DNA of 64,000 bases, taken from Schmidtea nova (lineage: Eukaryota). Shown in pieces: positions 22,966-57,700 of the stretch. Within the stretch, counting starts at the first letter, position 1; each line of letters starts with the position of its first letter. The notes beneath the pieces were generated by a model. It was given only the letters and a program-made list of their open reading frames with translations. It did no database searches and was not told where the DNA came from. The stretch spans positions 157,480,001 to 157,544,000 of the forward strand of contig CM097882.1 in the NCBI GenBank assembly GCA_044892505.1, read 5' to 3'. The position numbers and the translations under genes were made by a program.

Positions 22966-23599
22966 CATTCGTTGAAGTTTCAAGTGTTGGGTTAGTACAG
23001 AAAGAAATATAGTGAGAATTAAATAATTAATTAGGAAAAGATAAAAGTTAATGAGAAATATTAAAAATAAACAAGCTGAGAAGTAAGCATTAACAAGAAA
23101 AAGCAAAATTAAAACAAAATGAAAAATCGACGAAAAAATGATAATAATATGAAAATGAGTAGAAATTAGGAAATAAGAAGAATTAAAGAAAATAAATGTA
23201 ATTAGTAGAAAGAATAATAAAATAATAACAAATAGAAACAGAATAATAAAATAAATAAAATAATATATAAAAACGGGTCATTAGACCAATAGAATATTAG
23301 CTGAATTCTGATTGGCTACCTGAGAGCTGATTTTAATATATAAGGAAGCGCTCAAGATAGCATTAAATGGTCATTATATACCAGTAAGGTGTGTCATTAT
23401 TATCTACCAAACTACAAATTTTTGCATCCAGCACATATTTTGTATCATTTGTATCCCAACACTCGGAGGAACACTTTTTTTGGAACCAATCTTGAATTGG
23501 AAGAAACTGTAAGCTATTTGTGTTGTTTTCAATAAAATTTTATGCTAATAACCATATTTGTTTTTATTCATTCATATCATGCGTATAAATATTGCGAGG

Positions 23600-26566
23600 G
23601 TCTCGACAATCAGGTTAGATTTGTCGGCTCTACGGGAATTTCCACTTTTGTTTCGGACCTTCGGGAACGGGGCGAAAATGGAGATTTCTGTACAAGACCT
23701 TTTTATGTTACAGTTTTACTGAATAGGGTGAATGTCTGAGCCGCGCGATGCAGGTTCCGGTGTAATAGATTGCAGGTTACGATAAAAAGAGAATATCAGG
23801 CTCGTGAGAATAAATTGAGCCATCTAGGTTAAAACGAGAATATTTCATGTCAGTACAACATTTTCTTGTGTGAATTTTTCCACCCGTTGTAGGAGGGAAT
23901 TTAACTAACTGATATCCCAAAGTTAGGCAATTTCTACCTCCAAGCGTAAAAGAGAGCGATGTTCGGAAGAACCCAGTTTAAATTCACCGATAAATCCGTA
24001 ATGAGAATTATCTAGCGATAAACTCATGCCAAGCATTTTTCTGTGGGATCTACCAAAGTAACCTACTGCAATTGAAATTTCAGCATGAACAGTGAAAATT
24101 ATTTATCCGGGGACTTTCACTGAGTTTGATTGACGTGTAAAACTATCGACAATAACTACTTGAGACACATAACAAAATTGCAGGGAAAGATTTTCAAGTG
24201 TTATTTAGAGAAATTTCTAAAATTTGTGAAGTGGCAGTGAAAACACTTAAGGCCAGGTGAGTTGAGAATTTTCGTAGATGAACGCGGATAAGTGTCTCAT
24301 CGAGTACAGTGGAGAGTCCAGGAGAATATACGAAAGATTATGACCGATCTAGAAAATACCACTTCGTTTGAGTAGTTGATTTCATCTCTCATAAAATCGA
24401 CATTAAATAAACCCATGTCACCCATTGATACTACACTAGCGACAAATCCGATATTCAAGTTAGCTGAAAAAATTGAATTAAACTAAATAGAAATCCCTCA
24501 ATAATAGAAAGGAAAATAATTAATATGTTTAAGTTATTGTACAATTCGCGTAAACAAAACGGGATTTCATACGACAGTGTATTATGGTTTCCGAGAATGC
24601 ACATATGGGGAACCTTCCACTTACACGAAATGAGACTACACCAGGCACATTAATTTGGTACAGTTCTCGAGATACGTTCCCTACCAATTCTATCAACTTA
24701 TGTAATTTAGTTATTATATGTAGATTCGTAAATGCAGCGACTAAGTATTCATCTGAGAACAGTAGACGACAGTATGGCTGGAAAGGGATTGACAGAACGG
24801 AAAGCAGAGGCAAGAGAGAATTATCTTGTATGGGCTCTTCCCCTAAAGGATATGCTGAGGGATCTAGTGCAACAGATCGTCGACGAGCATAGAACATCAT
24901 CCTGGGAGAAGGGAAGAAAGCCTCCTTTTAGTTTGCACAGAGATAGCCCGGAAATCATCACCTGGCATGGTAGTCGATCATGGCCGGTGGATGTCAACAG
25001 GGAATACCCAGAGGACATACCAAAATATTTTGTCGAATCGCCCACCGAGATTTCCGGGCGATTCAATATTTTCTATACCGGGACGATACCCGTCGAGGAA
25101 TTCTGGAGTAACGGTCGATTCGTATTAGGCCCGACTCCAGCGGAAGGAAATCCCGATTCCCCTCTCAGCCAACGGACCCTCAAGAGATGGAGTTTGATGA
25201 TGACTGCGTTGAAGGCATAGATTTGTGCTGAATGCTTATTCTGTTGTCTGACAATTGTTTAGTTTTAACATATTATAAATTCATTGTTGGTCATTTGTCT
25301 TGTGTATTGTGTTCACTAAAAATTGAATTAATTAATTTAACGAAATATGAAGTATTGGCTTCGTAATATGTTTTAAAAAATTTAAAGGAGGAATGAAGTG
25401 CGCCTAATAAAAAACCCTGAGGTGGATAGTTAACCCACTGCGAATAAAATCTTCTTTTCTTAAGATCAACCATGATATCGAAGAACGAGACGATTGGAAA
25501 ATTAAAACGTCGTATAATTGAACTAGAGGAGAGTTGTTTTTCATCCTGCGAAGATGAAGAAAGTCCGGGGAAATTCGCAATGAGCGCGAGCGACGATTGA
25601 ATACCAGAGAATTGAAATGGAAGCTACTAGGATTGAAGTGAGAAATTGTAGACACCTGATCACGGAAAAGTTTGTAGCGGCGCAGTTAAGGGATCAGATC
25701 AGACTTCTAACTCTCGAGAGATAGTTTTCCAACTTATCCGACGAAGAAAGACACACCAAGGTAACGGTAGAGTCGAGTAAGCCGAAATCCCGGAATCGAA
25801 GGAAATCCCATGCACAAAGGCGTAGACAGTTGAAGCAGAAGCTTGCCAACGAAAGAGTTAAGCCAACACCAAATACCATCCAAGGAGAGACCGTGACGAA
25901 ACTTAATGCGAGGAATAACAACAATTGAATTTTACGTGTATTAATGACTGAATTGTTTTGTATATTGATCTGATTTATCTGTAATAATAATTGTTGTTGA
26001 ATTACTGTTTATTTGTTTTTTGTTTTTGTTTTAAGAGGGTAGGATAGGATCTTGAAGGAAAGTTAGAGTAACATATGGAAGTAAATAGAAAGATCGGTTC
26101 AGAGTATTGATCTCACCCTAAAGGAGAGACCTGGACTGGGTGAAGGAAAAGCAGGAATGAAACCTTCTATCGGTCAGTCAGAACACGAATGTTGCGACAA
26201 GTCAGGAGTAGTTCTGGTGAAGGAGCTCACCTGCTGGCTTGCGATCGGCTGTTATGTACATTACCAACGTGAACTAGTAGTGAAATGTACGGGTACATAG
26301 ACAGTATGCTTTTTATGTGTGTATTGCGACCCTAGAGAGGAGAGCAGAGTGAAAGTAGAAGGCGAATGAGTTGGATGAACTAGAGTCTTAACATTTTGTT
26401 TAATTTTGGAAAGTGCAATACACCAACACAAGTAATAAAAAAGAAATAACTTAAACGTGTCGCAACAGCTCACTTCACCGTCAGCTTTATAATCTCACTA
26501 AACAATTAATTTTTGACAATATTATTATGACAATTTATCAATTTATAAATTGTAATCTTGCGAACA
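23600..26566 (+). other. Decayed coding-like region, probably retroelement accessory/LTR sequence
   Basis: Higher GC, broken ORFs (e.g. 24732-25220), basic tail SKPKSRNRRKSHAQRRRQLKQKL followed by a T-rich tract, and an end aattgtaatcttgcgaaca resembling the 46753 LTR end. Confidence 0.3.
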
Positions 26567-31715: not shown

Positions 31716-32460
31716 ATGGCAGAGAAAAGAACGAGTGATTCACAGACACATGTTGCTAAACAATCTAGAAAAAGTCTGACGTAGGAGATGAAAACGAATG
31801 TTATTATGTGAATTGAGAACGGTGAACGACAGTTCAAAGTGTCTTCCAGCCTAGAGTTGGCTGGATCAACAATTAGAACCATTCTTAAAAATACCGATAA
31901 CATTAAGAAATCCATTTGTACAACAAATTCATTATCTGCTAAGAAAGTAACACACACAAGAAAGACTCAAGTAGAAGAAATGGAGAAATTATTAACATTC
32001 TGGATGGATGATCAAACACAGAAAAAATTACCGCTCAGCCAGGGCATCATAATGGAAAAAGCAAAGATATTATATTTAGAGCTTATAAATCGAACTGGAG
32101 AAAACTCCATAACGGAGAGTTTTGTTGCAAGCCGAGGCTGGTTTGAAAAGTTTAAACTACGTGCAAATTTACACAAAATTAGTCTTTCCGGAGAATCTGC
32201 CAGTGCTGATAAAGAATCTGCAGAGGTATTTAAGAAGAGTTTGGATGATATTATAAAAGAGAAAAATTATCCTCGGCAGCTTATTTTCAATTTTGATGAG
32301 ACCGGTATTTATTTTGAAGAAAATGCCATCAAAAACATTCATCTCCAAAGAAGAAAAATCCGCATCAGGTTTTAAAGCCGCGAATGATCGTTTAACTTCA
32401 TTATTAAGTGGAAATTCAACTGGAGATTTCAGGATGAAACCGTTACTAATTTACCATTCT
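31716..32460 (+). pseudogene. Tigger/pogo transposase relic (CENP-B HTH plus start of DDE)
   Basis: STIRTILKN, MEKLLTFW, IIMEKAK, FVASRGWFEKFK, GESASAD, IFNFDETG / KKMPSKTFISKEEKSASGFKAANDRLT; ends at a (CA)n(TA)n tract. Confidence 0.88.
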
Positions 32461-37163: not shown

Positions 37164-38917
37164 TATTACAGGGCAACAACAACAAACAGAAAATGCTTTC
37201 TTCATCATGTAAAAAGATAATTTGAATAAATATTATGTGAATAAAGCAATGTAAAATAAAGAATTGATATTTAACTTAACATATTAAATAAATTTAAAAT
37301 ACGCCAATATAGCTCTAAAAACATAATAAATAGTTATTACTCAATAACTGCCCGTAATATATTTCTATGTCACCCTTAATAACAGACCGTTGGTGTATAC
37401 TATTGGTTGTCAGCAAATGCATTAAGAAAAAATGATATCAATTGCTGCTCATATAACTGGTCAAGCTGTTTATAGATATTAAAACCACAACCAAATCAAT
37501 AATAACAGTCAGATACAATTCTAGAATTTCTGTTTAAACAAAATTCAACGTTTCTAATATACTAAAACAAATAAATTATCATAAATGGTTCTTCACAAAT
37601 GTTCATTGCATTAACAAAAGGGAAAATATATCAGGAGTTGCAAGCAAATTAGTTGTTTGCATTTAAATTAAAGTTATCAATCTGTTTTTTTAACTTTTGA
37701 TCCTTTTGAAATTTCAACTTTAAGAACTTCTTTTTTCGGATATATTAATTCATTCAATAAATCTATTAAAACTTCATTCAAGATTTTATTTACGTCATCG
37801 TCTGATTCTGAACGGAAATTATAGGGCTTTGATTTTGGCATTTAGCAAATTTATGTCTACAATTTGTATAAATAATCCTTTCATCAGGTAAAAATAAAAT
37901 ACATCTTATAAATAACTCTTCAGGCTAAGTATATATCACAACATCGATAAATAATTTAATTAAAAATACATTAGAAAAGATGAATAAATGATTTATTATA
38001 ACATTGACAAATAATTTTTTTGACCGAATTTAAAATAAAAACGGAAAATGTTTTCATTTTTTAATTGTATCAATGCAGCAAAACAGACTTGACACCAAAC
38101 AAATATGCAGTGAGAATTATTGTACGTAAAATAAAAAATAAATAAAATCAAAATGAACTAATAACCAACATAAAAGAGATTCGAAATTAAGCAATTTAAT
38201 AAATTTAATTCTACAAGATTAGTAAGATGTGAGCCAATAACAGTAAAAAATACCTTCCGCTCCCACACCAAGGGTTAGCGAACTATTTCTAAAAAAACTA
38301 CCCACGCCAAAAATTGTAATGTTAGTGTATGGGTTTATTGTTTTGTTGTGAACATGACATTTGTTCACCGTAAACATGACACCTTCATGAAATACAAATA
38401 ACCTGACTCATGAACCCGTAAATGCTCTAAGTTAAATATGTTGGAAATGCACACGATGGTATAAAAACAAGTGAGTAGGTGAGCTTCATTACCGAAACTA
38501 CTCATTGCATTATCCTTTTGGGTTCCTGGCTCCCAATAGAAGGTCTTACGCACATAGTTACGTTTTCTTTCAAAGGCCCATAAATTTTCTAGATTTATTT
38601 GTTAGTTCAAAAATTTCACAGGGTTCTGCCTGCATCTCTCGATAAAAATTCTTTACTCTTTGATTTTAGAAATTACTTTATTTTCCCACCCGATTGAGCG
38701 CTGAATAAGTCAAGGAAACCGCGGTTATGTGCAATTTGCGTAAGAAATTCTATATCTGCCAGAGCATTAACTCGAGAAAGCTAAAGGCGACGCGTTAGTC
38801 GAATAGAACCTTCAATGATCCCAAGAGACCACTAAAGATCCATTCTATCTAAGTTTACTTCAAACCATTTGAGCCTGCAAAATTGATTCTGCAAAACAAA
38901 ACAAAATTTAACTTTAT

Positions 38918-39152
38918 GGTGGGTTGTTGATCGTCAATATGACCTTGACGTTGCTATGGCTCTCATCAACAACTCAACACACAAAACATTAGATTTAACC
39001 ATCTTGTTGCCCGTCACAATGTAACGTTGGTAATGCAACAAATGGGTGGGTATTCGCAATCAGTGAGCGTCGTCAATAGGAAACTATGATTGACCGAATA
39101 TCTCATGGGTCCAAAGGCTACCGATAGAAGGTTAAATGCCCATTTTGTCCCT
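38918..39152 (+). repeat. Dispersed structured repeat, full copy
   Basis: Four hairpin domains; aligns with the other copies. Confidence 0.9.
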
Positions 39153-39366
39153 CCTATGCATTATTTACTTTAAAAAAAATCATGAGTTATATCGAACTAA
39201 ATTTACTACTAAACCTCAGTTGATTTTAGTCAATTTATTCCCTTCAAACATTCAAACTAATAAATATTTCAAATACAAGAGAAAACTTTAATGTTAACAA
39301 AAACAACAACATAAACTACAAAGTAAAGCAATAAATACAAGATAAAATATTAATTGTTGATTCATA

Positions 39367-39630
39367 TCACAACAACGTAATGTTAATTCCTTCTGAGGAC
39401 TCTTTGCGGATTTGCCCCAGCAATCTCGCTTCCTGACGACGTCTTCGTCGAGCCCTCACTCCTTTGTTGGGTTTCTGTCTTGTCATTTTTGCTGGAACCG
39501 GAGGTGTCAGGATCTCTTCTTCGACCCTCACTGGAAACAATTCTTGAGGTGGACATGAAGATTTCGGCAAGATGGCAGTGATAATGCCGTTTTTATCGCC
39601 CTTTCGTCGATAACCGGAGCGTTCCCACAA
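39367..39630 (-). CDS. Small Arg-rich protein near an LTR-like 3' end
   Basis: NGIITAILPK...ELFPVR...KGVRARRRRRQEARLLGQIRK; protein-level homolog at ~46400-46620 on plus. The ORF opens at TTG, so the true start is uncertain. Confidence 0.5.
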   Translation of the reverse strand: MWERSGYRRKGDKNGIITAILPKSSCPPQELFPVRVEEEILTPPVPAKMTRQKPNKGVRARRRRRQEARLLGQIRKESSEGINITLL

Positions 39631-40364
39631 AGAAAAGAAAATCTATGTAAGCGTGAAAGCTAAAGCTACTATTTCCGATTGGCCAATTTATAGTAAGTGA
39701 ATTTCGAATTCTATAATGAATTCATCGATTGATTTATTTAGTTTTACAGGGAGATTTGGACATTTCAAATTTCAGCGAGGGCGATTTTTCTCTTAAAAGG
39801 TAATTTGCAAATCTATTTCATCGTAAGTTAATTAATTAACCATTTTTAGATATGATTTGTCAAGATGATTGAAGCAAAATTGACATTCGTCGAATGTGGA
39901 TTTAATTTTATCTCCGGTTGAAAGAAAAATTCGCCTACCAATGGCATGAAATTACATGATCCGTTCGAATGGCCAAAAAATATGCGGATATTCATTGCCG
40001 TCTTGTGCCACAATGCTCTGGTGGAATTACACTACGATCGGTATATTTTCAGAAAATACATTTTATTTTTCAATTAAATTTTATCAATAAAAATCGGGTT
40101 CTCAATTTTTTAATTTTTCATTGGTATCAAATTTTTGTTAAATTTTTTTAATAAAAATCAAGTTCACAATTTTTCAATTTTGCAATGGTAATGTTTCAAA
40201 TTTTATTGCTACCTTTTTCTTTTATATTCATTTAGTGTAATTATTTTGACATTAATTTGGTAGGTATTCCATCCTACGCCAACATACCGTTTGAAGTTTT
40301 AGATCGTTTTAGATCTAATTTTTTTACCCTTTGATCTGATTTATCGTAAATCCTGGAGATTACA

Positions 40365-41015
40365 TTATCCCACTGGGTAGAATTTATTGTACACTGTAAC
40401 CACCTTTGATGAACCGGAAACCACACCAAGGTATTCAGATTTTTGGCGTGGTTGCCGATTCATAAATTTTATATTTGTTCCCTCGCTTATCACTTTACAT
40501 AAGTTTACAAATAAATCTAAATATACTTTTGTTTTCGAATGTCTGTAGTTGGTATTCAGCTTACGGCAATTTGTTAACATATACTCAGTCATGCCAAATA
40601 GCAGGGAAAGAAGGATTCCAGGTCGAAGCAAAGATCGATCGAAATCATCGGGTAATCCCCCAAGGAGGATCTCATAAGGAGGTGTTCCACTGCCGGCTTG
40701 CTTATTAGAAAGTACTTGTCCAATCACTCGGAGCGTGTAGATAAAATTGTCAGAAAATGTAATATTTATTTGATAACCAGTTTCTATATAAATCTTAATT
40801 GTATCACTTTTCTTTATTAATTGATTGAAAGAGACGTTGAAAAATCTGTAAAATTTAAGAATAAGATTGGAAGCATAACACCAAGTTTTGTAAATGTCTA
40901 TGAAAATATCAAACATGCAGTTTACCAAAATTTCATGAATGAAAATAAAAGGAGGTCTCAAAGATTGAATAACCATATAAAATGATACACACATGGATTT
41001 GATAGTACAGTACAT
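40365..41015 (-). CDS. Intronless 216-aa ORF of unknown function
   Basis: 651-bp open frame in very AT-rich DNA, overlapping the end of the upstream ORF; no motif recognised. Confidence 0.4.
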   Translation of the reverse strand: MYCTIKSMCVSFYMVIQSLRPPFIFIHEILVNCMFDIFIDIYKTWCYASNLILKFYRFFNVSFNQLIKKSDTIKIYIETGYQINITFSDNFIYTLRVIGQVLSNKQAGSGTPPYEILLGGLPDDFDRSLLRPGILLSLLFGMTEYMLTNCRKLNTNYRHSKTKVYLDLFVNLCKVISEGTNIKFMNRQPRQKSEYLGVVSGSSKVVTVYNKFYPVG

Positions 41016-42100
41016 ACTCTAAATACATTCACTTTCGGATCTTGATAGGATATCAATTGACAATAAAATCGTAATTTTCTTGAGACGAATAAGTTCATCA
41101 TATAAGAACCTTCAAAAATGCACATTATAAAGACAATGAATACAAACAATCCGAAAATAATGACGATGTAATAGTGTTGGATGGTCATTGCCGAAGATGT
41201 GTAGAAAATAGGATTCAACATTAAAGTCATACCGGTGAACGGCATTTGGCCTTCCGACTTAAAACAGCTACTAGAAGAATCATTTTTAAAAGATTCGAGC
41301 AATTCCCGGGCACTTAAACTCAAATTGCCATAACTATTCATTGAAACCTGATAACGGGGACCTTTAAAGTCACTCAAGCACATTTTTGGAGTCAAAATAA
41401 GCAAGTGATCCACCAAGAACTCGATCCTTATTTCCCACGGAAGTTGATTAAATATCAAGTTTAAACGGAGAAATATATTCTGTACCCATATTTCGATCTT
41501 TATAAATTTCTCTCTTTCAGTAACAAATTCAATGTTATCACTAAGATTGACATAAAAGTAGGGCCCAATAACAACTTTGGCATAGCATTGTTTATTAAAA
41601 ATATTTTGTTTTAAAGTTTTAGATAGTTCAATAAATTCCTTCGTTTCTAAGGCAACTATTTCTGTGATTTCAGACAGAATAATCGCTGGCGCGTGAGTGA
41701 TGTAAATCAGTTGATAGCGCTTATTATGTGATTCGACCAATCCGCTGATTTCATATTTATCATTGATGCGGAAATATCCCAACATTGATTCATTGGACTC
41801 TGTAGTGATATATCCATAGGAATTGATAAGAACCTCCAAACGTTTACCGTTAGCAGAAACTTTCAATGGTCTGACATCTTGAAAGTATTTGTAATAAAAG
41901 ACATTTATTTTCCACTTCATGTTGACAAATTCAACATTATAAGTTGCCGTAGCATTAGCAGATTCGATATTCCTGGCGCTGTTTGTCAGTCTAACATCGG
42001 CTTGGAACAATTTGTATGTAAAGATCCTGTGGATAAATTCAAAAATATATAATAACTTTATCATTATCAAAACCATTTGATCAATAATTAAGATTTTCAA
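40958..42100 (-). CDS. Intronless ADAM10/17-like protein (prodomain plus N-half of the metalloprotease domain, no HExxH) with a TM segment
   Basis: CYAKVVIGPYFY, IWVQNIFLRLNLIFNQ..IRIEFLVDHLLIL and LSARELLESFKNDSSSSC parallel ADAM10 CQLYIQTDHLFF, HVKAIDTIYQ..ISFMVKRIRI and VEKFLELNSEQNHDDYC; hydrophobic HYYIVIIFGLFVFIVFIMCIF; first ATG at 42076. Confidence 0.5.
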   Translation of the reverse strand: MKILIIDQMVLIMIKLLYIFEFIHRIFTYKLFQADVRLTNSARNIESANATATYNVEFVNMKWKINVFYYKYFQDVRPLKVSANGKRLEVLINSYGYITTESNESMLGYFRINDKYEISGLVESHNKRYQLIYITHAPAIILSEITEIVALETKEFIELSKTLKQNIFNKQCYAKVVIGPYFYVNLSDNIEFVTEREKFIKIEIWVQNIFLRLNLIFNQLPWEIRIEFLVDHLLILTPKMCLSDFKGPRYQVSMNSYGNLSLSARELLESFKNDSSSSCFKSEGQMPFTGMTLMLNPIFYTSSAMTIQHYYIVIIFGLFVFIVFIMCIFEGSYMMNLFVSRKLRFYCQLISYQDPKVNVFRVCTVLSNPCVYHFIWLFNL

Positions 42101-42399
42101 ATATTTATTTTTTCTTTATTAATTATTGCGCGGGTTAACCGCTTAACAAACTCTTTTAAACAACAAATAATAAAATATTCAAATAATAAAATTTTTACAT
42201 ATCTAACAATTTTTTTTACAATCTTGATTTACATAATTTTTAAGATACATTAAACACGCATAAACATTTATTTATGTTAAAAATTCATATTCAAACGTGT
42301 GTCCACAGAACATTACACCACCATATAATGAATAAAATTGATAGGAACTTTTAAAATTACCGGTGAGGTGAGCATGTATGATTTGGTACAATGTAAAAC

Positions 42400-44930
42400 C
42401 ATTGGGGATTCTGGATTTTTAGCCGATAGTTCAGATGAGTTTTGTAAATAACGGGGTTGTGAATTCCTATGACATTTCTTGCATGGATATGTTGTACGTT
42501 GTGGTCTGGTGAAACAAATTGAAATAAGTTCGGAGATGTGTGTATGTATGTTTTATAGTACGTTAGAAATGAATGCCCTATTGTTATGATTTTATGTGAT
42601 TGCGTGTGTTTGTATGTTGGGAATGATACTGCGGTAAGAGGCTATAAACAATGGATGGGATTAGATGAATATTTGTGGGGATCGTCTGGATGTATGTTGC
42701 TAGTGGATATTGTTAAATGAAACTACGTTGTGTATGTTGGTGAGTGGATGTATTGTTTATGGTATTATTTAGCATAGAAGCTCCTATTGATTGAAATGTG
42801 GTAGTGTGTGTGTATGTGTTGGTAACTGAATGTATTTTTGTATTGTATTAGGTATGAGTGTTACTAATGAATGAAATGGATGTAAATTTTTGCAATTAGG
42901 GATGCATTATGATTTTGTGATATCGTGGGGGTACTTTATAAAATAATATATATTTATATATAAAATATTTTCAGTATTAAAATAATAATAATAATTTTTA
43001 TAATAATTTTTACAAATTTTAAATAAAATTTCTAATTTTTAAAATATACATTTTTGAATTCAAATTTTTAAATTTCAAGATTTAATATATTAATCGTAAA
43101 TTTTTTCTATGAAATTTCGAATTTGGAATTTTATAAAATGATAAAAAAAATTTATATAATAACAATATTTTCGATTTGTAATTTTCATGGGTTTCAATAT
43201 AATTTTTGATTTACTAATTCTTAGGAAAACTTTTGGTTTACAATTTCTCATTATAAATTTTTCGCAATATAATAAAAAGTAAAATTTTATTTTTTATGAT
43301 CTATAACGAAATCTACACAATAATAAATTTTTATCCAAAAATTTCGTAATCCAAATAAGAATTCAATCTAAAAATTTTTATATACTAAATAAAAATAAAA
43401 GTAAAATAAATTATAAATTCTTCAAAGAATAATTTTTGACATCGAGTAAAGTGAATTTTGGTTTCGTTCGAGCATGAATTTCGCAACCAAAGTGCGCCCA
43501 AATTTTTCGGGACACTTCACTTAGAAACTTCAGGCTCCCGTAAACAAGGTTCACTGGAGAAAATTATTTAGATAATGAATGAGGTTTAATTCAGATCAAT
43601 CAATACTTGTCTTCATAATTCGTTTCATTTCGTGATCATTATATCAGCTCTGAGCATTATTTCAACGATTCTCTTTTCAATATTAGCTTTCTATTCTACT
43701 TGTGTTTTTCGGATAAGATGGTAATTGTTGTGAGAGTGAAGGCGAATGACGTGTAAAATATTCTTGTACAGATAAATTATATAATGAAAAAGACATTGCT
43801 GGATGAATTGACATTTACGTTTTTATGTAGTATTATGTTTTAAGTGCTCATTATGTTAAAAAATTATAATTCCAATAAAATACACTAGTATAAATTATAG
43901 ATCATTAATATAATACCTTGCCCTTGGTCAAGCCACTGTTCCCCAGTTGGGTTGAAGTGATCATGGATGTTTGGGCGTATCACCTGAACTCGGAAATATG
44001 GGCTGATCGATTACGAATCGAACCAGTGATCCACTCAGGCTACTTCCACCCGCTCGGCACAAGGCCAGAAACAGGTTTCAGGGGGTATGGAAGAAAAAAG
44101 AATTATTACTTTTATCTTGGTACAATAATTATTATTATAAAATAAATTTTTATTCCATCTGGGAATTTATGACATGATTAAATTTAAATAATGAAAAACA
44201 AAGAAAAACAACTTTCATTTAATATTTTGGATAATAATTAAAATTGATGATGATAATATAAGAATAATAATCAATAATATAAAATTAACAATAATAAAAT
44301 AATACTGGGTACGGGGTAATTGAAGGAGCATGATGTTCAATGACCCCGCACCGATCAAAAGAATGATACTTACAAATTTTTCTGGAAAATTCGAGTTCTT
44401 CAAAATTAAAATTTAAAAAATTTCTTTCATCAAATTCTCACAAATTCTGATTATTGCCATTTTGATGGCGGTATATATACCATCGATTGTGTGTTACCTT
44501 CACTAGTGCAGTAAAACAAATTGTTCTAGAATGTTCTTTTTAGTTTTTCTAAATTAATTCTAATGATTTTCCGCCGAATTAAATCAATATTTTTACGTAA
44601 TAATTTTTTATAAACTATAATTGATTTATTTTAATCCAAAATATTTATTTTTGAATCAGAATTTATTCAATTTGGTTTAATTTGCTATATTTCGATCAAA
44701 ATTAGTTCTTTTTATCTTTAATGTGAAATTTAATGGTAAAATCACAATTTTCTTCTAAAATTTTGTTAATTTTGTCTGCACTGAAGTTTTATGACACAAT
44801 TCTGTTCTTTATGGGTATTTTCAATGGGTTTTCCGCCTATTCTAACTTTCAAACATTCTTCTTTTGACAACTTTTAATTTTTCTCAAGGTTTCAGTGTAA
44901 GGACTTGCAGATTCACAGCTAGCGCTGTCG
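42400..44930 (-). mobile_element. LTR copy B (lacks the terminal ~170 bp; left boundary uncertain)
   Basis: 42850-44930 aligns with 49270-51450 and 1570-4100. Confidence 0.75.
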
Positions 44931-45240: not shown

Positions 45241-46753
45241 TGTTGGGTAAAAACTGAGATTTGTCATAATGAAGCGATAGCACATCACGTAGAAGTAAAT
45301 TTAAAATTCTATGAGCTAAAACACCAAATAAAAAAGAGAAATCACAAAACACAGAAATAATTAAATAAAACACGTTTAAAAATTAAAATAAACCAAAACT
45401 CATTAAGTATACGCGTCAAAAACACAATTATAACATAAAAACAGCAATTAGAAAATAAAATTAGAAATTAGAAAAAATTACATATTTATAGAAGAAAAAC
45501 TTTTATTATTTCCTTAAAAATTCAGTAAATATGAACAAAAATTTTTTGGATAAAAATTTAGTAAATTAAACTAAATTAGAAAAAAAATTTTGGACTAAAA
45601 ATAAATTATTTAAAGTTTTATTAAAAAGTTATACAAAAATAATAATTTAATTTTGCTTAAAATCATTAAATTTATTTTTGGAAGAATTGAAAAATCCTTT
45701 TAGAACAATTTGCTTTTATGCATTAACGACAAGAACACACCAAACCTCCTATATATACCACTATCAAAATTATAATCGTCAGAATTTCGTACAACCAACT
45801 GGCAAAAATTTTATTTTAGCGGAACTCTACCAAAACTCTTGTTAATAAGAAGAATTTGCGCATAGTACACTACTATAAAATTTCATCAAACGAATTTCTC
45901 ACGAAAAATTCTTCCATAATTACTGAAAAAGATCTCCAGTTGTCATTCATCGGAAGAGACTACAGATTCAAACCAATCAACCATTCAGTTTGATACGCTC
46001 AGGCGAATCTAGTACAAAAACCTCTCTCCATTCTAACAACGTCATTAAAAGAAACTGTCGACAGAAAGGTTCCGGAAGGAAGCCAACCAAATACTAGAAA
46101 TTATATGGAAGCTACAATCGATGAGATTCTAAAAAGGATCACAGAAAATGCGCAAAACAGTCGACGCCAGACTCGTCGACATGGAGGAAGAACGAAAACT
46201 CAATGGGATCGCTCTACAAGACATAAAAATCCGCTTGGAGAAATTTTGGTTCCGCTGTCAGTCAGTGAAAGTGACCTGGACCAATAAAGAAGGTGCGGAA
46301 AAGCTAAAACGACAAATCCAAATCCTACAAGAGCAGGACACTGAAGGCGCCATCCAAATCCGGGCATTAAAATTTACTAGTATAAGAAAATGAGGCAAAA
46401 ATTGCAAAAATGAAGACGGAAAATGGTATTATTTCCGCCGTACTGTCCAAGGTTAACTTTCCAGCGATTGAATTGTTTGCTGTCCGAGCTGAAGATAAAA
46501 CACCTGTTATTTAACATCCGGAGAGGCCAAAACGCTGAAAGCCCAGCAAAGCGTTAGCGCACGCCGAAGAAGAAGACAAGAGCCATGAGTGCTGGGTCAA
46601 ATCCGAAAATCTTGTAACGAAACAATAGTTCTCACTTCGTTTTAAACGAAATAATCCTTTCTCTTCAAACTTTATGATTAACTGCGATTTATTTTATTAT
46701 GATCTGTATTGTCCATTGTTTATTTCTGTACATATAAATGAATTGTAATAACA
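45241..46753 (+). mobile_element. Probable solo LTR (~1.5 kb) of a related family with a decayed internal ORF
   Basis: Starts TGTTGGGTAAAAAC, like the TGTTGGGCAAAAAC of copy C, and ends ...TAACA; flanks aatat/attat (one mismatch); broken ORF ~46105-46620. Confidence 0.6.
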
Positions 46754-46894
46754 ATTATATTTTCTGTTCACATATTAAACTTTCCTTATTATAATAAAAG
46801 TAATTAACAGTAATCATATGAATCGATCGTAGAACCTCAATAATACTTTTTATCTGAGTATAATTGAAACAAATAATATAGCAAGTCATGTTAA

Positions 46895-47125
46895 GGGACT
46901 TAGAACGTGCACTGAACCTTCTATCGGGAGCCCTTGAACTCAATGTGATGTTCGATCAATCATAGTTTCGATTTTTTCGATGCTCACTGTTTGCGGACAT
47001 CCATCCGTATGTTGCATTACCAAAGTTACATTGTGACGGGCAACAAGATGGTTAAGCTAATGTTTTATGTGTTGAGTTGTTGAGCCACAACAACGTCAAG
47101 GTCAAATTGACGGTCAAAAACACAC
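46895..47125 (-). repeat. Dispersed structured repeat, inverted copy
   Basis: Reverse complement of 38918-39152. Confidence 0.85.
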
Positions 47126-47559
47126 CAATATTATAAAAATTACCCTTAAAATTTTAAATTAGTTTACAGAAAATTATTGATCTTCGATAACCCCCTTTAT
47201 GAAAAAATGAAATAAAAAAACTATATGATTTTATATATATAAAATTTATTTTTAAGATTCAAGCTTAGGAGAAAATATTTGTGCAACCTGATTATTTGCT
47301 CATTTCTATCGTAAGTTGTTGTATATTTTATATATTACACCAACAGTCTGTAATTAAGGGCCAAAAAAACACTTAATACAGGCAGTTGGTATTTATTAAC
47401 TAAATATTTTTTTTAATTTAATTTTTAACTATGTATTTAAGCTATTTTACCATATTTTAAATTTATTTAATATTTTTAGTTAAATACAAATTTATTTTAT
47501 CTAGATATTTTTAGATATTTATGAAATACATAAAAAAGTAAGTTTTTATAATTTTATCA

Positions 47560-47880: not shown

Positions 47881-48010
47881 AAATTTTAAGTTAAAAGTTA
47901 AAAATTCAAAATATTTTTCGTTTTTCGTTGTTTTCTTTCTACAGTTTCGGCCATTTGAGGCCTTAACGCTTCATTTTCTGCATTTCTAAAAATATCTTTT
48001 TTTAAATATT

Positions 48011-48262
48011 GGTGGGTTGTTGATCGTCAATATGACCTTGACGTTTCTATGGCTCTCATCAACAACTCAACACATAAAACATTTAAACTACCATCTTGTT
48101 ACCCGTCACTATGTAACGTTGGTACTGTAACAAGTGGGTGGGTATTCGCAATCAGTGAGCGTCGTCAATACGAAACTATGATTGACCGAATATCTCCTGG
48201 GTCCAAGGGCTACCGATAGAAGGTTTAATGCCCATTTTGTCCCTTCTTCGACGATTTATCTA
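48011..48262 (+). repeat. Dispersed structured repeat, full copy
   Basis: Aligns with the other copies and shows a compensatory pair change. Confidence 0.9.
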
Positions 48263-48789
48263 TAAGCTTTCAATAAAAATTTTCATCGGAAATTCAACAT
48301 AAACACTCTACATAACTATAAATTCATTATTGTATCCAAACAAATTATTCCGAGCATCGAAAACACTAATATAACCTTATATTTTACCAATATTGCATTT
48401 TATGATAATTAATACATAAAATATTTTATTTTTATAGAAAAATTTTAATCTGCATTTGAAATTTAAGAAAAACTCTAATTATTACCGTAATTTTATCGAG
48501 TTTAGAAATAATAAAAATAAAATTTCCGTTTGCTTAAAATTGCTAATTTAATCAAAAGGACGAATTTACTCAATTTAAAAATTATATTAATTTTAAATGT
48601 AATTTTCTGAATTTTTCACTAAATTGATTAATTAACGATTTATATAGTTCAGATCAACAAGAAATGGATCTCTCCAGAAACTACAAAGCCAGAGGAAAAT
48701 TCTCCCACCCCAAATGGGTCAAACCAACTAGAACTCGAGCTCCTACGAAGCAAAATAGCCAGCTCTACCGACCAAGTAAAATTTTGATT

Positions 48790-49803
48790 ATTTTAGAATT
48801 ATAATTTATTTTGAGCAATTTTAGAAAATTTCTTGAAGAGAATATGTTGGAACTGGCCCTTCAAGCACTGTAAACTGGAAAAATCCTTGCCGGAGATTCT
48901 TATCCCTCAAACTGAATGACCATCAATTTTTATCAATAAATTTTTAGATAATTTTTTTCGTCTTTACTCTTTTTCGTTTGAGTTTTTATTATTTTTATGA
49001 AATTTTTGTAAATGGGAAATTAAAATAAACTGTAATGTAAATGGCCTATTTGATTGTACTAAGTTTGGCTGGGTATATTTAATTTTATATGGTATGGTTG
49101 AATGATAGATATAAGTGAATGAAATTTTGGTATGGTTTTTCTGGATGTATGATGCCGACTAACATAACTGTGTAGAATTTTCAGTATGGTTTGCTTGTGT
49201 GTATATAACTATTGAATGCTAATAAATGATACTGTGTATGTGTGTATATTGTATTTTAAATATATGTTGCCTGTGTATTAGTATGGGAAATGTTATTGAA
49301 TGAAATGGATGTAATTTTTTGCAAATAGGGATGCGTTATGATTTTTGAGATATCGTGGGGGGTATTTATAATATACTATATATAAATTATATAAAATATT
49401 TTTAAAATTAAAATAATAATAATAATTTTTATATTAAAATAATAATAATAATTTTTATAATAATTTTTATAAATTTTAGATTTATAATTTTACGAAAGTA
49501 ATATAATAATAAAATTTCTAATTTTTATAATATATATTTAATAATTTTTATAAATTTATAATTTTATGAAAATAATATAATAATAAAATTTCTAATTTTT
49601 ATAATATAAATTTTTATAATACTTTTTATAAATTTTAAATTTATAATTTTATGAATATAATAATAAAGTTTATAATTTTTATAATATACACTTTTATAAT
49701 ACTTTTTATAAATTTTTAATTTATAATTTTATGAAAGTAATATAATAATAAAATTTCTAATTTTTATAATATACATTTTTATATTCGAATTTTTATATTT
49801 TAA

Positions 49804-49837
<34 letters not shown>

Positions 49838-51620
49838 AAAAAATTTTTCCTATAGAATTTTGAAATTTTGGATTTTTTAAAATGATAAAATTTTCAATAT
49901 AATAATAATATTTTCGATTTAAAATTTTTATTGGTTTCAATATAAGTTTTGATTTATAAATTCTTAGGAATTTTATAAAATGACAAAATCTTTTATATCA
50001 TAACAATATTCGGAGAATTTTTGGTTCACAATTTTTCATTATAAAAATTTTTCCAATATAATAAAAAGTAAATTTTTATTTTTTGATCGAAACGAAATCC
50101 ACATCATAATAAATTTTTCATCCATAGATTTCGAAATCTAAATAAGCATTTAATCTAAAAAATTTTTATATGCTAAATAAAAATAAAATAAAAATAAGTT
50201 ATAAATTTTTCAACGAATATTTTTCGACATCGAATAAAGTTAATTTCGGTTTCATTATTATTCCATCGGATTTGAGCATTAATTCGAACGATTTACTTTT
50301 TAATATCGGTTTTTAATATCCTGGATCTTGGATGAGAAGAAAATTATTGTGAAGGTGAAGGCGAAGGACGAGTAAAATGTTTTTGCATAATTATTTTTCC
50401 TAATGGAAAAGATGTTGCTGGAGAGATTGGTTTTTACGTTTACATGTGGTATTAATTTTCAATATATCAAAAATTATAAATTCGGATAAACTACATTTAT
50501 TATAAATTAATATCATTAATATAATTTCTTGCCTTGGGCCAAGCCACTGTTCCCCAGTTGGGATGAAGTGATCATGGATGGTTAGGCTATTCACCTGAAC
50601 TCGGAAAAATGGACTGATCGATTTACGTATCGAACCAGCGATCCGCTCAGGCTACTTCCACCCGATCGGCACAAGGCCAGACACAGGCTTCAGGGGGTAT
50701 GGAAAAAAAAATTTATTTAGTTACTTTTATCATTTTTTAAGATAATATTGTGGATTTAACTCTCTGAGATTTTGTGACAAACAAAAAAAAATTATAAGTA
50801 AATATTTTAATATTCATTCGATAAAAATAGCATAACAATAATAATATAAAATTATAAAAATATTACCGGTACGGGGTAATCGAACAGGCATGGTGTTCGA
50901 TGACCCCGCGCCAACAAAAGAATAGGACTTACGAATAAATTAAAATTTATAAGTTTTCTTGAATAAAATTTCACAAAATTCTGATAAATTCCATTTTGAT
51001 GGCGGTATATATACCATCGATTTTGCGTTACCTTCAGTAGTGTAATAAAACAAATTGTTCTAGAATTTTCCATTTAATTTTTCTAAATTAATTCTAATGA
51101 TTTTCCGAAAATTAAATCCATATTTTTGTGTAATAATTTTTTACAAAACACAAATAATTTATTTTAATTCCAAATTTTTGTTTTTGAATCGAAATTTGTT
51201 CGATTTGATTTAATTTACGATATTTCGATTAATTTTAGTTCTTTTTATTGTTAATGTGAAATATTTTGATAAAATCACAATTTTCGGCTAAAATTTTTGT
51301 TAATTTTTTCTGCATGAAGGTTTTTATAACACAATTCCGTTTTTTGGGTATTTTCAATGGGTTTTGCGCCTATTCTAACTTTTAAACGTTCTTCTTTTGA
51401 TGGTATTTGATTTTTCTCGAGGTTTCAATGTAAGGGCTTTCAGACTCACAGCTAGCGCGTTCTCTACTGGTTGATGTGTTGTGAGTCCACTTCACCTTTT
51501 GTTGTTTTTCACTTAATTGCTTGGATTTTTAATGGATTTTTGGGTTAAAACTGAATCTTGCGCGCTCTCTACCTATGGGGTTATCGTTTTATTAAAACAG
51601 TTTGTGGTTTTTGCCCAACA
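48790..51620 (-). mobile_element. 3' LTR (copy C) of the giant Gypsy element; left boundary uncertain (~48300-48790)
   Basis: Begins TGTTGGG on minus at 51620, ~1.2 kb downstream of the polyprotein end; homologous to copies A and B. Confidence 0.8.
50998..51018. promoter_or_regulatory. Palindromic TATA element in the LTR
   Basis: gatggcggTATATATAccatc, conserved at 44464-44484 and (TATATAAA) at 3646-3666. Confidence 0.5.
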
Positions 51621-52844
51621 TAAAATACTCGGGGGCCCGCAAAAATTGCGTCCCGCAATTTCTCAGAGGGGTTAAGAACCAAGACTAATCAAAGGTCAAA
51701 AGGTTGTACATTATACACGAGCTACTTGGTCGTGATCATGCCGTTCGCGACAATAAAAATAAAAAGTGATAAAATTTAATAAAAAGTTAATATGTATACA
51801 TTAATATGAGTCTACATAGACTCGCAAGCAAAAAAAAAATTAAATATAATGTAATATATGTGCCTACAGCGGCTAATCAAAGTTCAATATGAGTCTACAA
51901 CGACTCGGATAAAAGTTTTATAAAATTCAGTTAAATTGTTTATATTCTGGTACTTGACGAATAGTATTGTATTGGTTGTTCTATTGTAAATTGAGGATTT
52001 GTTTCTCGTTTTCTGGGTCGTCTTGGGGATTGTTCCGCTTTGGTTGACATAGTTGATAATTCATTGGATAATAGCACGGAGCGAGTATAAGGTGATTGAA
52101 TATGCTCCGTAATTTTCTCAGTTCGGTCTTGATTTGGATCATATAATTCGGGTTTTCGGATGTGACCGCTCGTAGTTCATCATTTGACTTTGTCCATTCT
52201 TTCATAGATTATCTGATCTCGATTCATTGGACGATTTATTAAGGTAATTGTTCTGGAATTTGATTGATCGTAGGTGTGGATTTTGATTCTTGCTTCAAAG
52301 GTTTGATTTTTCTCTTGATTGGAGCTTTGTTTTAAGATTTTGCTGGCTCCCTTTTCGCATTATTGCTTTTAATTGTTTCTTTCAAATTTTTCTTGATTTA
52401 ACTTAGGTTTCTGCTTCACTTTTCTGGTTTGGATTGTTTTGATTTCATTGACTTTCTGATTTGTCTGGTCTTGATGTTTGATAATTTTTGTTGATGTTCG
52501 GTCTTTTTATTCTCTATTTTTTCTGATTTACTCAAATATTTTTCTGGCTCTCCGATTAATTCATTTTTTAATGGTAACTTTTCTGCGAACAAGCTTGACT
52601 TTGACTTTAAATGATCTCTTTAATTTAATTCGACCAGTTTTTTTTTTTTTTTTTTTTATAATACAAATAATCATACTTTTATTATAATATATTTTGTACA
52701 TTATTTACACTTCATTTTGTTTATTACACCAACGTCTTTAAGATACACACATTTTTTTGATTTTTGGTGTTTTTCATTATACAATTTTCTCATACTTTTA
52801 CGATACTATATATTTTGTACATTATTTACACTTTGTTTCGTTTG

Positions 52845-53471
52845 TTATACCAACGTCTCCTGAGGGCCGAAATATAGGTTTCGCATTCCCCCATACAATT
52901 CATTTGTAGTTCGATATATATCTGCTTCTATTATTGACGGATTTATCGTTGGTGGTAGTCCTTGCATCCACATTCCATTGAATTCTGATCCATTGCATAT
53001 CTCATATTCGTCTTCCGTCTTTACTTCTTCTAAACTGATTCCATATTCAAACTTCTCGATGCTTGGCCATTGTCTCTTTCTTTTCGGTTTTCTTTTACAT
53101 CTTCCAGTGATTTTTGCATGTTGTGTGAGAATCAAAACCAATATTGTGCCTATTATTCCGGCAGTTATCCATATCATTTTGATTGCTATTTTTGATTCTT
53201 CTACTGCTGCTGATATTGTTGTTGGAGATTCCGTTGTTGTTTGTACGATTTTGATCGGTCTCCCTCCTTGAATTATTCGTTCGGCTTCTTCCTCCGATAT
53301 ATATTTATTATAAACTGTTGATTTTGTTGTTAGTATTTGATCTTCTGTACTGAATTTTCTGGTATCGTCTACTCGTCTAGGTAATTTTGAAATAAATTGA
53401 CATGTTGGATGTTCATTTAATTTTTTGTAGAGGCATACCCGGTATTTAGTTCCTCGTTCCCATCCGGCTAC
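52845..53471 (-). CDS. Frameshifted continuation of the polyprotein: end of FN3-like repeat 4, Thr-rich stalk, TM helix and cytoplasmic tail
   Basis: The -1 frame is open from ~53495: VAGWERGTKYRVCLYKK...TTTESPTTISAAVEE...MIWITAGIIGTILVLILTQ-HAKITGRCKRKPKRKR... Confidence 0.8.
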   Translation of the reverse strand, partial: VAGWERGTKYRVCLYKKLNEHPTCQFISKLPRRVDDTRKFSTEDQILTTKSTVYNKYISEEEAERIIQGGRPIKIVQTTTESPTTISAAVEESKIAIKMIWITAGIIGTILVLILTQHAKITGRCKRKPKRKRQWPSIEKFEYGISLEEVKTEDEYEICNGSEFNGMWMQGLPPTINPSIIEADIYRTTNELYGGMRNLYFGPQETLV

Positions 53472-54770
53472 ATAATAATAAATGATTTTTCTTCTTTATT
53501 GCTCACACTTTTACACTTTTCTTGTTGTAGTTTTACTTCATAAATGCATATTCTAGCAATAAGATGTCCTTGTACGTTTTTGACTTTTATAATATCATTT
53601 TGAAAGAATTTTTCGGTTTCTTTTTGTATTCGGTTTGGAGTGATTGATATTGATATTTCTTTTCTGTAACCTTTGACTATCGTTGGTTTCTCTGTTACAG
53701 TTATTGTTGCTCTTGGGAGTCTTATTGCTTTTTCAACCGGTTCTCTCCCGCTTTCTGTGCTTGTTATTATTTGTTCTGTTGTGGTGTGTTCTTGACAAAT
53801 TGGGACTAACGTTCTCCATATGCATATTAGATACGTTGTCTTTGATTCTAACTCTTTGATTATCATTTGTTCCTTTCCCTTTACTGACTGTTGATAGCAT
53901 TTGCTAGGGTTGTCAAGCCCACTATTCATATCGACCTTTCTCCAACAAACCTTTTTGATTACTTCGTCATGGTTGTTTATTAGTATTATTTCCGTGGATT
54001 TCGTTTCTACTATCAGAGGGTAATAAGTAGTTGTTCCATTGGTTGTTGTAGTTGTCGTTATGATTTCCTTGGTGAGTTTTTCTAGACATAGTTTTTGTGT
54101 CCATATTCTTCTTATGCATATCGTGTAGCTTGTTCCTGGCTTCAATCCTGGTATTCTGAATTTTCCAATTTGGCCTGTCATTTGAAATTTACACGATAAT
54201 TGTCTGTCTTTATTTTGCATATGGATGGTTTTTATCCAACAAATTTGAGTTATAGGCTCTATCACCTTGTTTGTTATCATCATCTCTTTTTCTTTCACTT
54301 CTATTGTTGTTTTGTTCTGGATCGTCATCATAATCTTTTTATCTTGCTCTTCTTCTTCGTTTTCTTCTTCATTTTCATCTGTTGAGGTTTTTGTGACACT
54401 TTGTATTTTTTCTAGCTTGTTCCTCTCGTTTCCCATTTTCGTAATCTTTTCTTTAGCTGCACAGATTGCTCTTATTTGATTTGTCCGATATACACATATT
54501 ATATACGTTGTTCCTGATTCGAGTTTTTCGATCTTTTGCTCTTCTCCTATTGCTAATGCTGTTCTTATGCATTTCTGGTGATCACTGACTCCATTTTTCC
54601 GTATTGCAACTGTACATATTTTAATTATTAGCTCTCCTTTGATATTCGTTATCCATATATTTTCTGTATCTGTAACTATTCTCGCCTCTGCTCTCCTCTG
54701 ATCAAATATGTAATCAATTGCTTTCACCCAATTCAACATTGTCAATAATATTGTCATAATTATTGTATTT
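53400..54770 (-). other. Second signal-like segment plus four FN3-like repeats
   Basis: NTIIMTILLTMLNWVKA; repeats LESGTTYIICVY, LKPGTSYTICIR, LESKTTYLICIW, WERGTKYRVCLY. Confidence 0.75.
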
Positions 54771-57700
54771 TTACCTGGATTTTTAAGTAGACATACCGTT
54801 CGATTTTCATAGTTGGAATTTTCTTGTCCATTCTTGTTCTCTTTATTTTCGTCTTCGTTTTCGTTGTTTTTATTCTCCCATTTGTCACTGTTTCTGTGAT
54901 TTCCGTGATCGCTGTTATTATCATTTAGCTGCTGTTCATTGCTATCGTTGTCTTTATCGTCTGATTTGCCGTCATCGGGATCGTTCAGATCACCCTCGGT
55001 TTCTTTTAAAATGTCGTCCTCGACATTTATATCTTTGATTATTTCCCAATATAATTTGATAATTCTTTGTTCATCTAATTTTATTTCACCCATTTTGCAT
55101 TTCAATGTTCCAGCATCGTCGTGAAGATAACTCTTGTCTTTATTTTTGATCTTTTTTCGCCATTCTTTAACCAATTCAAGTAGTTTTTCTCTCTTTGTTT
55201 TTATTTTCATTTCTTCGTTTGGCTTGTTTGTGAATCTGAAGTCTGATCTTTTTAGTAGTGCTTTTGCTACTCTAGGTAATGTCCAATTTTCAATCAAAGC
55301 TCGCTCCATTAACACGTTTTTATCATTTTTGAACTCGTTGTTCACATTCATCAGTCCTTCTCCAGAGAGTGGATCTTTCCATTTTATCATTTTTGTAGCT
55401 ACTATTTCGTCTTTTCTCATTACTGCTCTTAATAATGGCTTTGGATTTAAACTCAGGATTTTAATGTCCTCTTGACTTGCTTTTGATAAAAGGTACTTGG
55501 CTATTGTATAATAAGGTGATCTGTAAACGTATGATAGTACAGTTTCATTGTTGTTATCCCTTTCTTTGATACTTGACCCTGTTCTTAGTAACTCCTCGAT
55601 TAAGTCTTTGGACCCTCCTTCTTCTACTGCTAGCATTAATGGTGTTTGTCCTTTCCAATTTTTTATATTCGAGTGTTGTCCACATCTTTCCATGAGTTTA
55701 ATTATTTCCATAGCTCTTTTTCCTTCTCCCTTCCTCAAGGCTACATTTAGTGGTGTTTTCTCATTGAAATCAGTCATTGTAAATAATATTGGCATTCGCT
55801 CCTTGATTATATTAATAACTTTTGGTGTTGCCTTTCCTCTGGCATAATCATCTATTATCCGATTTAGTCCGTTTATTATTTCGAATACGTGTTTGCCTTC
55901 TGTCCATTCCGGCATAATCTCTTTTGCTGTTTCTATTATCAGATCCATTTCTTTTATATGTTCGATTCTCGCATCATCCGTTATTTCTTGCTTAATTTGT
56001 AATGTTGGACTTCTCATCTTTGGTGCAAAGAATGTTGTGTCTCCAAAACATCCACATCCTTTACTCTTTCTAAGCATGCATATTTGTCTTGTCTGTGATC
56101 TGGTCATTATTCTCCTTTCCTCTGGTTCTTTTGTCGCAGTTTTTTCTACTCGTTTACATCTACACACATTCACGTATATCGGTCGAACTAACGGATTGTT
56201 GACTAATTTTACCCGGATATTATTTTTGCTAACAAATATGACTTCATATGGTCCTTTTCCCGTTCTCTGTAATTTTTTCGCTGTTCCTGGGATGATTTCT
56301 GGTGTTTCGACTATCACCCAATCGCCTAGCTTGAACTGATGTTCATGTACATTTCTCTTTTTGTCGTGTAGTTCTTTGTAACTCTCTTGATTGAATCGTA
56401 TATTCATACCTGCAACTTTCCAAATTTCTTGCATTCGCTCCTTGAATTTTGTTACGTAATCATCGATTTCCATATATTGTGATATTGGTGGTTGATATTC
56501 AAGATCCATTGGCATGTTGCATTCTCTGCCGTACATCAATTTAAACGGACTCATTTTTGTTGCCGAGTGAATCGACATACGGTATGCCATTAGACATAGA
56601 TTCACATATTCATCCCAATCCTTTTGGTGTTTACTGACATAATTTGACATCATCTCAATCAATATTCCGTTAAATCTCTCCGTTTGTCCATTTGTTTGGG
56701 GATGATATGGTGAAGTTCTCAACTTAGCTATTCTGAAATAATTGGTAACTTCGTTGATGATCTCGCTCATAAAATTTGTTCCTTGATCGGTTAAAATTTG
56801 TTTTGGTGTTCCATATCTACAACATATTTCTTCGACTAATATTTTGGCTATTGTTCTAGCTTTCTGATCTGGCATTGCAAATGCTTCTGGAAATTTTGTT
56901 AAGTAATCAGTTATTACTAATATATAAACATTTCCATGATTTGTTTCTGGTAAGGGTCCTACTACATCCATTGCGATCATTGTCATAGGTTCTGGTGGAA
57001 TTGGCATTGGTTTTAAAGGTGTTTTCATTTTACTGCCAGTGCTTTTTCGCGTTGCACATATTAGACAATTCCTAATCCATTCTTTCACGTCTTCCCCAAT
57101 ATTTGGCCAAAAATATTTCTGTTTTAATCTCGCTTCCGTTTTCTTAGCTGACATATGTCCACCAAGTTTTCCATCGTGGTATTGCATCAGGATGTCTTTC
57201 CTTCTACTTTCTGGTAAACACATGAGTCTTTTTTCTCCGTCCATTGCTAATAACCAGCCTTTTTCAATTGTATATTTGTGCCTGTTTTTCTCCATATGCT
57301 CCTTTAGTTGGCTGTTATGCTCAAAGATTTTCATATCATTCTTATTCAAATATTCGATGATTAGTTTTAGCTCTTCATCTTCATTTTGTTCCTGTTGCAG
57401 TTTAGTGAAATCAATATCTTCTGCGATTATCATACATATTCGCCTGACATCTTTGTCCATTAGTTCTTCAAACATAAATCTTGACATACAATCCGCATTT
57501 GCGTTCGCTTTCCCTGACTTTAACTTTATATATGGCGAATATTCTTGTAGCTGCATTGCCCATCTCATCAATCTGCTTGACGCTTCTTTATGCTGGCCTA
57601 ACCATACTAACGGTTGATGATCTGTTGTGATGTATATTTCGTGACCCCACAATAGATATTTGAAATGTTTAATCGCCTGAATGATTGCTAGCGCTTCTCT

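Follow-up and report, generated by a model that had tools for sequence, protein, structure and literature searches.

LTRs are usually regarded as non-coding, and solo LTRs as inert leftovers. Among described elements, planarian Burro/GYPSM1 (Ty3/gypsy) shares with the elements studied here multi-kb LTRs with TG...CA ends and a polyprotein carrying MATH, an env-like fusion-glycoprotein region before the protease, RT, RNase H, integrase and ankyrin; the available part of that report (PMC6431247) mentions accessory ORFs, yet places none of them in the LTR and mentions no intron there. CERV, encoded by Cer1 (Ty3/gypsy) of C. elegans, is a spliced-mRNA product that is needed for genomic RNA export, according to the available portion of the source (PMC10309623), and was the sole worked-out Ty3/gypsy export factor met in the literature searched. 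Within that literature, whose coverage did not extend to the primary planarian genome paper, its supplements and Repbase entries, neither a gene nor an intron was described for a Burro LTR. In the Schmidtea nova window (the whole stretch of 64,000 nt that was analysed) and its genomic relatives, a real, selected and spliced gene was found inside the LTR of this known element type; its function we infer below.

The first-pass annotation had flagged an arginine-rich peptide as a small conserved protein encoded near LTR ends. Both peptides that it quoted were located where it had placed them (39367-39642, minus strand; 46420-46620, plus strand). The plus-strand homologue was decayed by stops and frame shifts, as described, and the DNA of the two had diverged as described, with 122 of 184 aligned bases identical (66%). 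The peptide recurred throughout the 1.25-Gb AT-rich genome (G000): all 150 places scored, of 3762 candidates, matched it, showing that it is not a product of chance. Many matching copies were 187-codon open frames starting with Met, and the product was 184-187 aa long. The flagged peptide is therefore not a small protein; it is the C-terminal ~73 codons of a 187-aa ORF. That ORF is LTR-encoded, as had been claimed, but it sits inside a ~5.2-kb LTR running from TGTTGGG to CCCACCA and not near the LTR ends. The TAACA motifs (39292, 46753) had been mistaken for LTR ends; the actual ends are CCCACCA at 38917 and CACACCA at 47127. The T-rich tract after the ORF belongs to the 3' untranslated region. 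A third basic tail (25725-25925) proved related but distant, with no direct profile match to the first family (probability 0.3%). The features of the window are:

25472..25928, plus: distant relative of ~150 aa, copy broken; it sits in an LTR of another family, which ends at 26428
38917..44925, minus: host LTR, subfamily A of the Burro-like family; ends CCCACCA at 38917, first ~160 nt not found
38917..39150, minus: conserved terminal ~235-nt module, common to gene-bearing and gene-less LTRs
39234..39239, minus: AATAAA ~130 nt after the stop, a weak poly(A) candidate in AT-rich DNA
39367..39588, minus: gene remnant, codons ~115-187 plus stop of the 187-aa LTR gene, by comparison of genome copies
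39403..39474, minus: arginine-rich segment, predicted to be helical; in an intact copy, residues 149-178 carry a net charge of +10
40405..42317, minus: unrelated element of 1.9 kb inserted into the intron, with a GGTGG duplication
43916..44095, minus: H2, GC-rich multi-stem RNA element in the intron, candidate response element by covariation
44296..44365, minus: H1, strong hairpin about 9 nt inside the intron (z -5.2)
44368..44373, minus: first GTAAGT after the initiator, likely donor of the window copy, from sister-LTR donors shown by spliced copies
44443..44479, minus: putative promoter at LTR nt ~610-640, with TATA box 44479-44472 and initiator-like TCAGAATT 44450-44443
45241..47127, plus: solo LTR (1.9 kb) from an older subfamily, with an ATAT duplication and TATA at 45750
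48010..64000, minus: Burro-like element, comprising a 3' LTR without the gene at 51620-48010 and the internal region at 51621-64000

The flagged copy aligned to the 187-codon frames from about residue 115 on. Compared with L011 and L036, it had a ~930-bp deletion with its junction at 39589/39590, and the 'KGDK' upstream of GIIT was read-through over this junction. The splice acceptor, the start codon and the first ~113 codons (the N-terminal 60%) were lost, indicating that the flagged ORF is a remnant; judged from its sequence, the copy is a dead pseudogene. The junction was found in 1 of 30 copies checked, namely the window's own. Reading the deletion as a splice was rejected because the deleted stretch does not start with GT. 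The AG just upstream, proposed earlier as an acceptor, falls within the intron in intact copies, ~640 nt in, and L042 does not have it. The decayed homologue within the solo LTR at 45241..47127 spans ATG 46105 to about 46645.

The ~5.2-kb units were identified as solo LTRs by their TGTTGGG...CCCACCA ends and 4-bp target duplications, the latter found in eight of nine copies with both ends. Solo LTRs carrying the gene numbered in the hundreds, and young full-length elements had it in each of their two LTRs. Two long elements held an intact 184-aa ORF in both LTRs (LTR pairs 99.7% and 99.4% alike), and their 5' LTR was followed by a primer site, which we take to resemble a tRNA-Pro primer site. 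One gene-bearing long element also had a Gag knuckle (CCHC), RT, and the same 3' cargo and junction as the window element. Multi-kb LTRs, TG...CA ends, a short target duplication and a primer site were all present, and the elements are Burro-like giant Ty3/gypsy by LTR and domain features. A Penelope or terminal-inverted-repeat element, or a non-autonomous DNA element, was rejected by the TG...CA ends, 4-bp duplications and PBS. Most full-length elements lack the gene, and gene-bearing types are a minority. None of 30 sampled LTR-PBS junctions bore it; A/F-type LTR-PBS junctions numbered 21 versus 1161 in all (a rough comparison, as the search patterns differ), and a primer site followed 21 of 234 A/F-type LTR ends (lower bounds from exact patterns). 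At L129-L158, many LTR-PBS junctions diverged directly past the 18-nt primer site and look as if LTR-plus-PBS pieces (plus-strand strong-stop DNA) had integrated.

The Burro-like element of the window contained MATH, fusion glycoprotein, protease, RT, RNase H, integrase, ankyrin and FN3 domains in its internal region (Pfam). Its LTRs share their 5' part and terminal ~235 nt with gene-bearing LTRs, with the gene missing, and no homologue of the LTR gene was found in the examined parts of this young element. A frame after the polyprotein (52848-53495, minus) has a transmembrane-like stretch and continues FN3-like repeats, and a poly(A)-like run lies at 52637-52657 within the internal region. The 5' LTR of the element (L126/L127, just past the window) carries an inversion and stands back to back with another Burro-like element, which is on the opposite strand. 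The nested 1.9-kb element in the host LTR was young (copies 95-99% alike), with a ~570-aa frame that had no Pfam match; it is probably another gene-bearing solo LTR, as gypsy gag/RT-like frames follow it at two loci. It is an independent element and was rejected as lost LTR cargo. L102, a sister of the LTR ending at 26428, had the same primer-binding site after it. A 162-codon frame was seen at 24732-25220 (plus), upstream of the E-family gene, with CCAAT/TATA-like motifs further upstream at 23290-23380, so that the E-family LTR is possibly a two-gene LTR. Other contents of the window were a Penelope-like element with RT, GIY-YIG and inverted arms (9832-12703), an intronless serine/threonine phosphatase-like frame (21365-21964, minus), and transposase fragments of hAT (17820-18374), Tc5/pogo (31812-32375), ISXO2-like (33542-34168) and Tc1-like (36517-36891) types.

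The suggestion that the ORF is reached by splicing was borne out by five genomic LTR copies that are precisely spliced. In subfamilies A, B, C, D and F the ATG was preceded, at a distance of 0-9 nt, by an AG. Exact starts with an AG immediately in front of the ATG numbered 217, against 12 that lacked G at -1; the latter comprised 8 point variants and 4 spliced LTRs (L240, L242, L244 and L251); starts with a non-A plus G before the ATG were left out of this search. L205 was the fifth spliced copy. In these LTRs the first ~700-950 nt were joined straight to the ATG, and the intron was gone exactly at the acceptor. Unspliced sisters of L242 and L244 had GTAAG exactly at the joint, L205 and L251 matched that donor over a shorter stretch, and L240 had no sister among the loci examined. 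The introns were 3030-3725 nt long and GT-AG. Precise loss of such an intron from five genomic copies indicates that the splice occurred in RNA. The 4-bp target duplications retained at L244 and L251, and the primer site and Burro frames following L240, show that spliced RNA underwent normal reverse transcription and integration. These sequences show a GT-AG splice whose donor lies at LTR nt ~700-950 and whose acceptor immediately precedes the ATG of the ORF, and the naturally spliced copies record the exon junction without RNA data. No spliced copies of subfamily F, and none joined to the post-PBS leader, were found. Spliced-leader trans-splicing was weighed as well; the junctions recovered are cis. 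Tandem arrays of 1257-bp units were observed at G000:C2:408222209-408243965 and 408553197-408577463 (L217 and L209, about 18 and 20 units), each unit holding the acceptor, the whole 184-aa ORF and the 3' region; a spliced origin was rejected because the joint shows microhomology.

Transcription appears to start at the TATA box and initiator at LTR nt ~610-640, where TATATATA with TCAGAAT 28-29 nt downstream was present in 21 of 27 promoters. Between initiator and joint, the first exons of the five spliced copies had 0 ATG in 1041 nt versus 21.6 expected from composition, and permuted triplets gave 8-22, which fits a 5' untranslated exon. AATAAA was found ~120-140 nt after the stop in A and F, a weak indication in AT-rich DNA. 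The TATA box and initiator may be the main promoter, with an R of ~4 kb, or an inner U3 promoter like those of MMTV, as described in the available part of PMC12789967. Likewise, the intron may lie in U3 or in a very long R, and the spliced copies fit both.

The ORF was conserved at the protein level: dN/dS was far below 1, whereas a value near 1 had been named in the first-pass annotation as speaking against its proposal. Pairwise estimates from unbroken natural frames only (broken copies left out, pairs not independent) were 0.20-0.29 within subfamily A (15 copies, 105 pairs), dropping as dS rose, 0.07-0.12 for A-B, 0.12 for A-C, 0.17-0.29 within D and 0.16-0.30 within E. For the basic helix, the estimates were 0.07-0.29 in six comparisons between subfamilies and 0.56 within A (36 copies); single-pair Fisher p in that set was 1e-20 to 1e-30. 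Third-position bias was seen in subfamily comparisons, and three-base periodicity along the LTR was confined to the ORF and one interval just before it. Synonymous sites were saturated, while protein identity was kept at 40-66%; the non-ORF frames had stops in most subfamilies. On this sequence evidence, purifying selection between subfamilies (dN/dS about 0.1-0.3) acts on the ORF, basic helix included. Of 30 subfamily A copies sampled, only 8 were whole, indicating that selection acts on the transposing lineages.

AlphaFold2, run with 23 sequences, predicted helices at residues 6-66, 69-120 and 161-177 (mean pLDDT 69.5, pTM 0.25), with a heptad pattern in the first. The protein is thus predicted to be a long coiled coil and a basic helix, parted by a ~40-residue linker predicted to be unstructured; the homodimer prediction (score 0.02) was uninformative. 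It has four scattered Cys, one of them conserved. The only leucine-rich export-like pattern (residues 10-18) was no better than chance (3.4 matches per shuffle) and was missing from subfamily D. No significant match was found in Pfam, PDB sequences, or the Foldseek PDB and viral libraries, and a protein search with one intact copy returned no relative, nor was there one among longer proteins. Among 1.84 billion representatives two matches passed, P0006 and P0005; a further search with a profile returned P0006 only. P0006 (157 aa, E 1.6e-4) aligned throughout and, as the sole outside homologue, matched both the first family and the third-tail family (probability 87.7%). P0005, a tandem-repeat protein, was judged spurious, and atlas matches were rejected as coiled-coil look-alikes. 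P0006 led to the chordate cluster zgc:113691 (score 0.95), a lead only, for which the literature search found no paper. No characterised relative of the LTR gene product was found in the databases searched.

LTR hairpins had been proposed as a possible target. Of the terminal hairpins, the last 75 nt of the LTR folded well in one copy (z -3.4) but not in a D copy, and there was no covariation gain among 33 sequences; structures in the intron were better candidates. In H1, 94.5% of cells were paired, with 1 compensatory pair in 17 sequences. In H2, 98.2% were paired and 10 of 35 pairs were doubly changed in 34 sequences versus 0-4 in slid controls, the structure being derived from the same alignment that was used to score covariation and the double changes coming mostly from one or two subfamily splits, that is, few events. 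Many G-U-tolerated changes in H2 favoured the sense strand; its single-sequence z was -0.06. Among unspliced A, C, F and gene-less LTRs, H2 was present in 13 of 13 and H1 in 8 of 13, and both were absent from all five spliced LTRs. Neither was detected in the window's D and E LTRs. As the structures are kept in gene-less LTRs and undetected in those D and E LTRs, they may serve another purpose. Rfam gave no match over an LTR, nor over H1/H2. The putative RNA 5' end was variable, with no stable fold (z -0.5 and -0.1).

The LTR thus contains the spliced gene in full, and we tentatively propose that the conserved product controls the element's own RNA in the manner of a Rev-like switch, a reading by analogy that we consider quite possible, if short of probable. 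The layout recalls Rev/RRE in that a basic, probably oligomeric protein comes from a spliced message only and a structured RNA lies in the removed intron. The Rev/Tat comparison made earlier holds for the conserved arginine-rich helix, but not for a Tat-type cysteine domain, which is lacking, or for the terminal hairpins, which show no covariation. Each LTR, solo LTRs included, would be transcribed from nt ~610-640 into a short ~1-kb message. The protein would oligomerise through its predicted coiled coil and enter the nucleus, where the basic helix would bind RNA still carrying the intron via the candidate structures H1/H2. Such binding would favour unspliced or read-through genomic RNA over the protein's own message, and elements that lack the gene but retain H1/H2 would receive the protein in trans. 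Against this stands above all the absence of the gene from most full-length elements, so that a Rev-like function needs supply in trans or another route. The stronger form, in which each gene-bearing LTR is a self-contained Rev/RRE-like circuit and hundreds of solo LTRs supply the regulator in trans, is doubtful, though worth entertaining. If it were true, one LTR would hold a promoter, a non-coding exon, a 3-kb structured intron and a regulator exon, with an R of several kb. Solo LTRs would then be transposition helpers for the far commoner gene-less full-length elements and not dead ends.

The same gene and splice would also suit a transcriptional trans-activator, a coiled-coil dimer whose basic helices sit on LTR DNA (zipper-like, in reverse order) or on nascent RNA (Tat-like). 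This is unlikely. The heptads of predicted helix 1, the basic helix and expression as a likely early LTR product agree with it, but the ~40-residue predicted linker parts the coiled coil from the basic helix, an arrangement unlike that of a bZIP. The protein also has no cysteine cluster, only one Cys being conserved, and a stable fold is missing from the variable RNA 5' end. We likewise think it improbable that the protein is an accessory factor interfering with the host (anti-silencing, or a nucleolar/chromatin decoy), its basic helix being a nuclear/nucleolar localisation signal only. The gene is dispensable in cis, as an accessory factor would be, and in the available portions of the sources Burro carries other host-meddling cargo (PMC6431247) and is PIWI-repressed (PMC8532177). 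However, conservation (dN/dS 0.07-0.29) extends over the full basic helix as well as the hydrophobic flank, apparently beyond the usual needs of a localisation signal, and a conserved RNA structure lies in the very intron that is removed. A structural or RNA-chaperone particle protein, active in packaging, dimerisation or strand transfer across the very long LTR, has a slim chance of being right: long predicted helices and a basic tail suit an RNA-coating polymer and spliced genomic RNAs were still copied and integrated, but a Gag with CCHC knuckles is already present (also in the available part of PMC6431247) and gene-less elements transposed recently (LTRs 99% identical). That there is no functional gene, only conserved LTR DNA or an antisense-frame shadow, is largely refuted, since four other subfamilies have 3-7 stops in the antisense frame that is almost open in subfamily F (0.3 stops) and, although many copies are broken (8 of 30 intact), protein identity has outlasted saturation at synonymous sites.

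The Rev-like proposal provides a concrete protein and RNA target for studying how the largest LTR retrotransposons known keep spliced and unspliced RNA in balance, in a host group of animals in which RNAi is routine. Like CERV, as far as the available part of PMC10309623 describes it, the product is a novel Ty3/gypsy protein from a spliced mRNA with coiled coils (here predicted), and export of unspliced RNA would be the role in common. CERV, however, has 517 aa and five exons in the internal region, whereas the LTR gene has 187 aa and one coding exon inside the LTR; the same portion describes a Cys loop and a G-like domain in CERV, with no arginine-rich motif. Judged by length, exon layout and predicted structure, the LTR gene product has none of CERV's H, M and G domains, its Cys loop or its gag-shared exons. 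HIV Rev, HTLV Rex and MMTV Rem, in the available text of PMC12789967, are likewise small basic proteins from spliced messages with a structured RNA in the spliced-out region. The arginine-rich motif (net +10, predicted helix) and the spliced-message origin are shared with them, but the LTR gene product has a 115-residue predicted helical region and its gene is absent from most sister elements; library searches by sequence and with Foldseek gave no sequence or fold match to Rev, Rex, Rem, Tat or CERV. Unlike Tat, it has no cysteine-rich domain, and the putative RNA 5' end is unstructured, with no TAR-like hairpin. As to position, MMTV sag and HIV nef also have coding sequence in the LTR U3, and upstream U3 promoters of MMTV are able to express sag, although both products are membrane-linked immune modulators in that source (PMC12789967, in part). 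Here, in contrast to sag and nef, the promoter, first exon, 3-kb intron and ORF all lie within one LTR.
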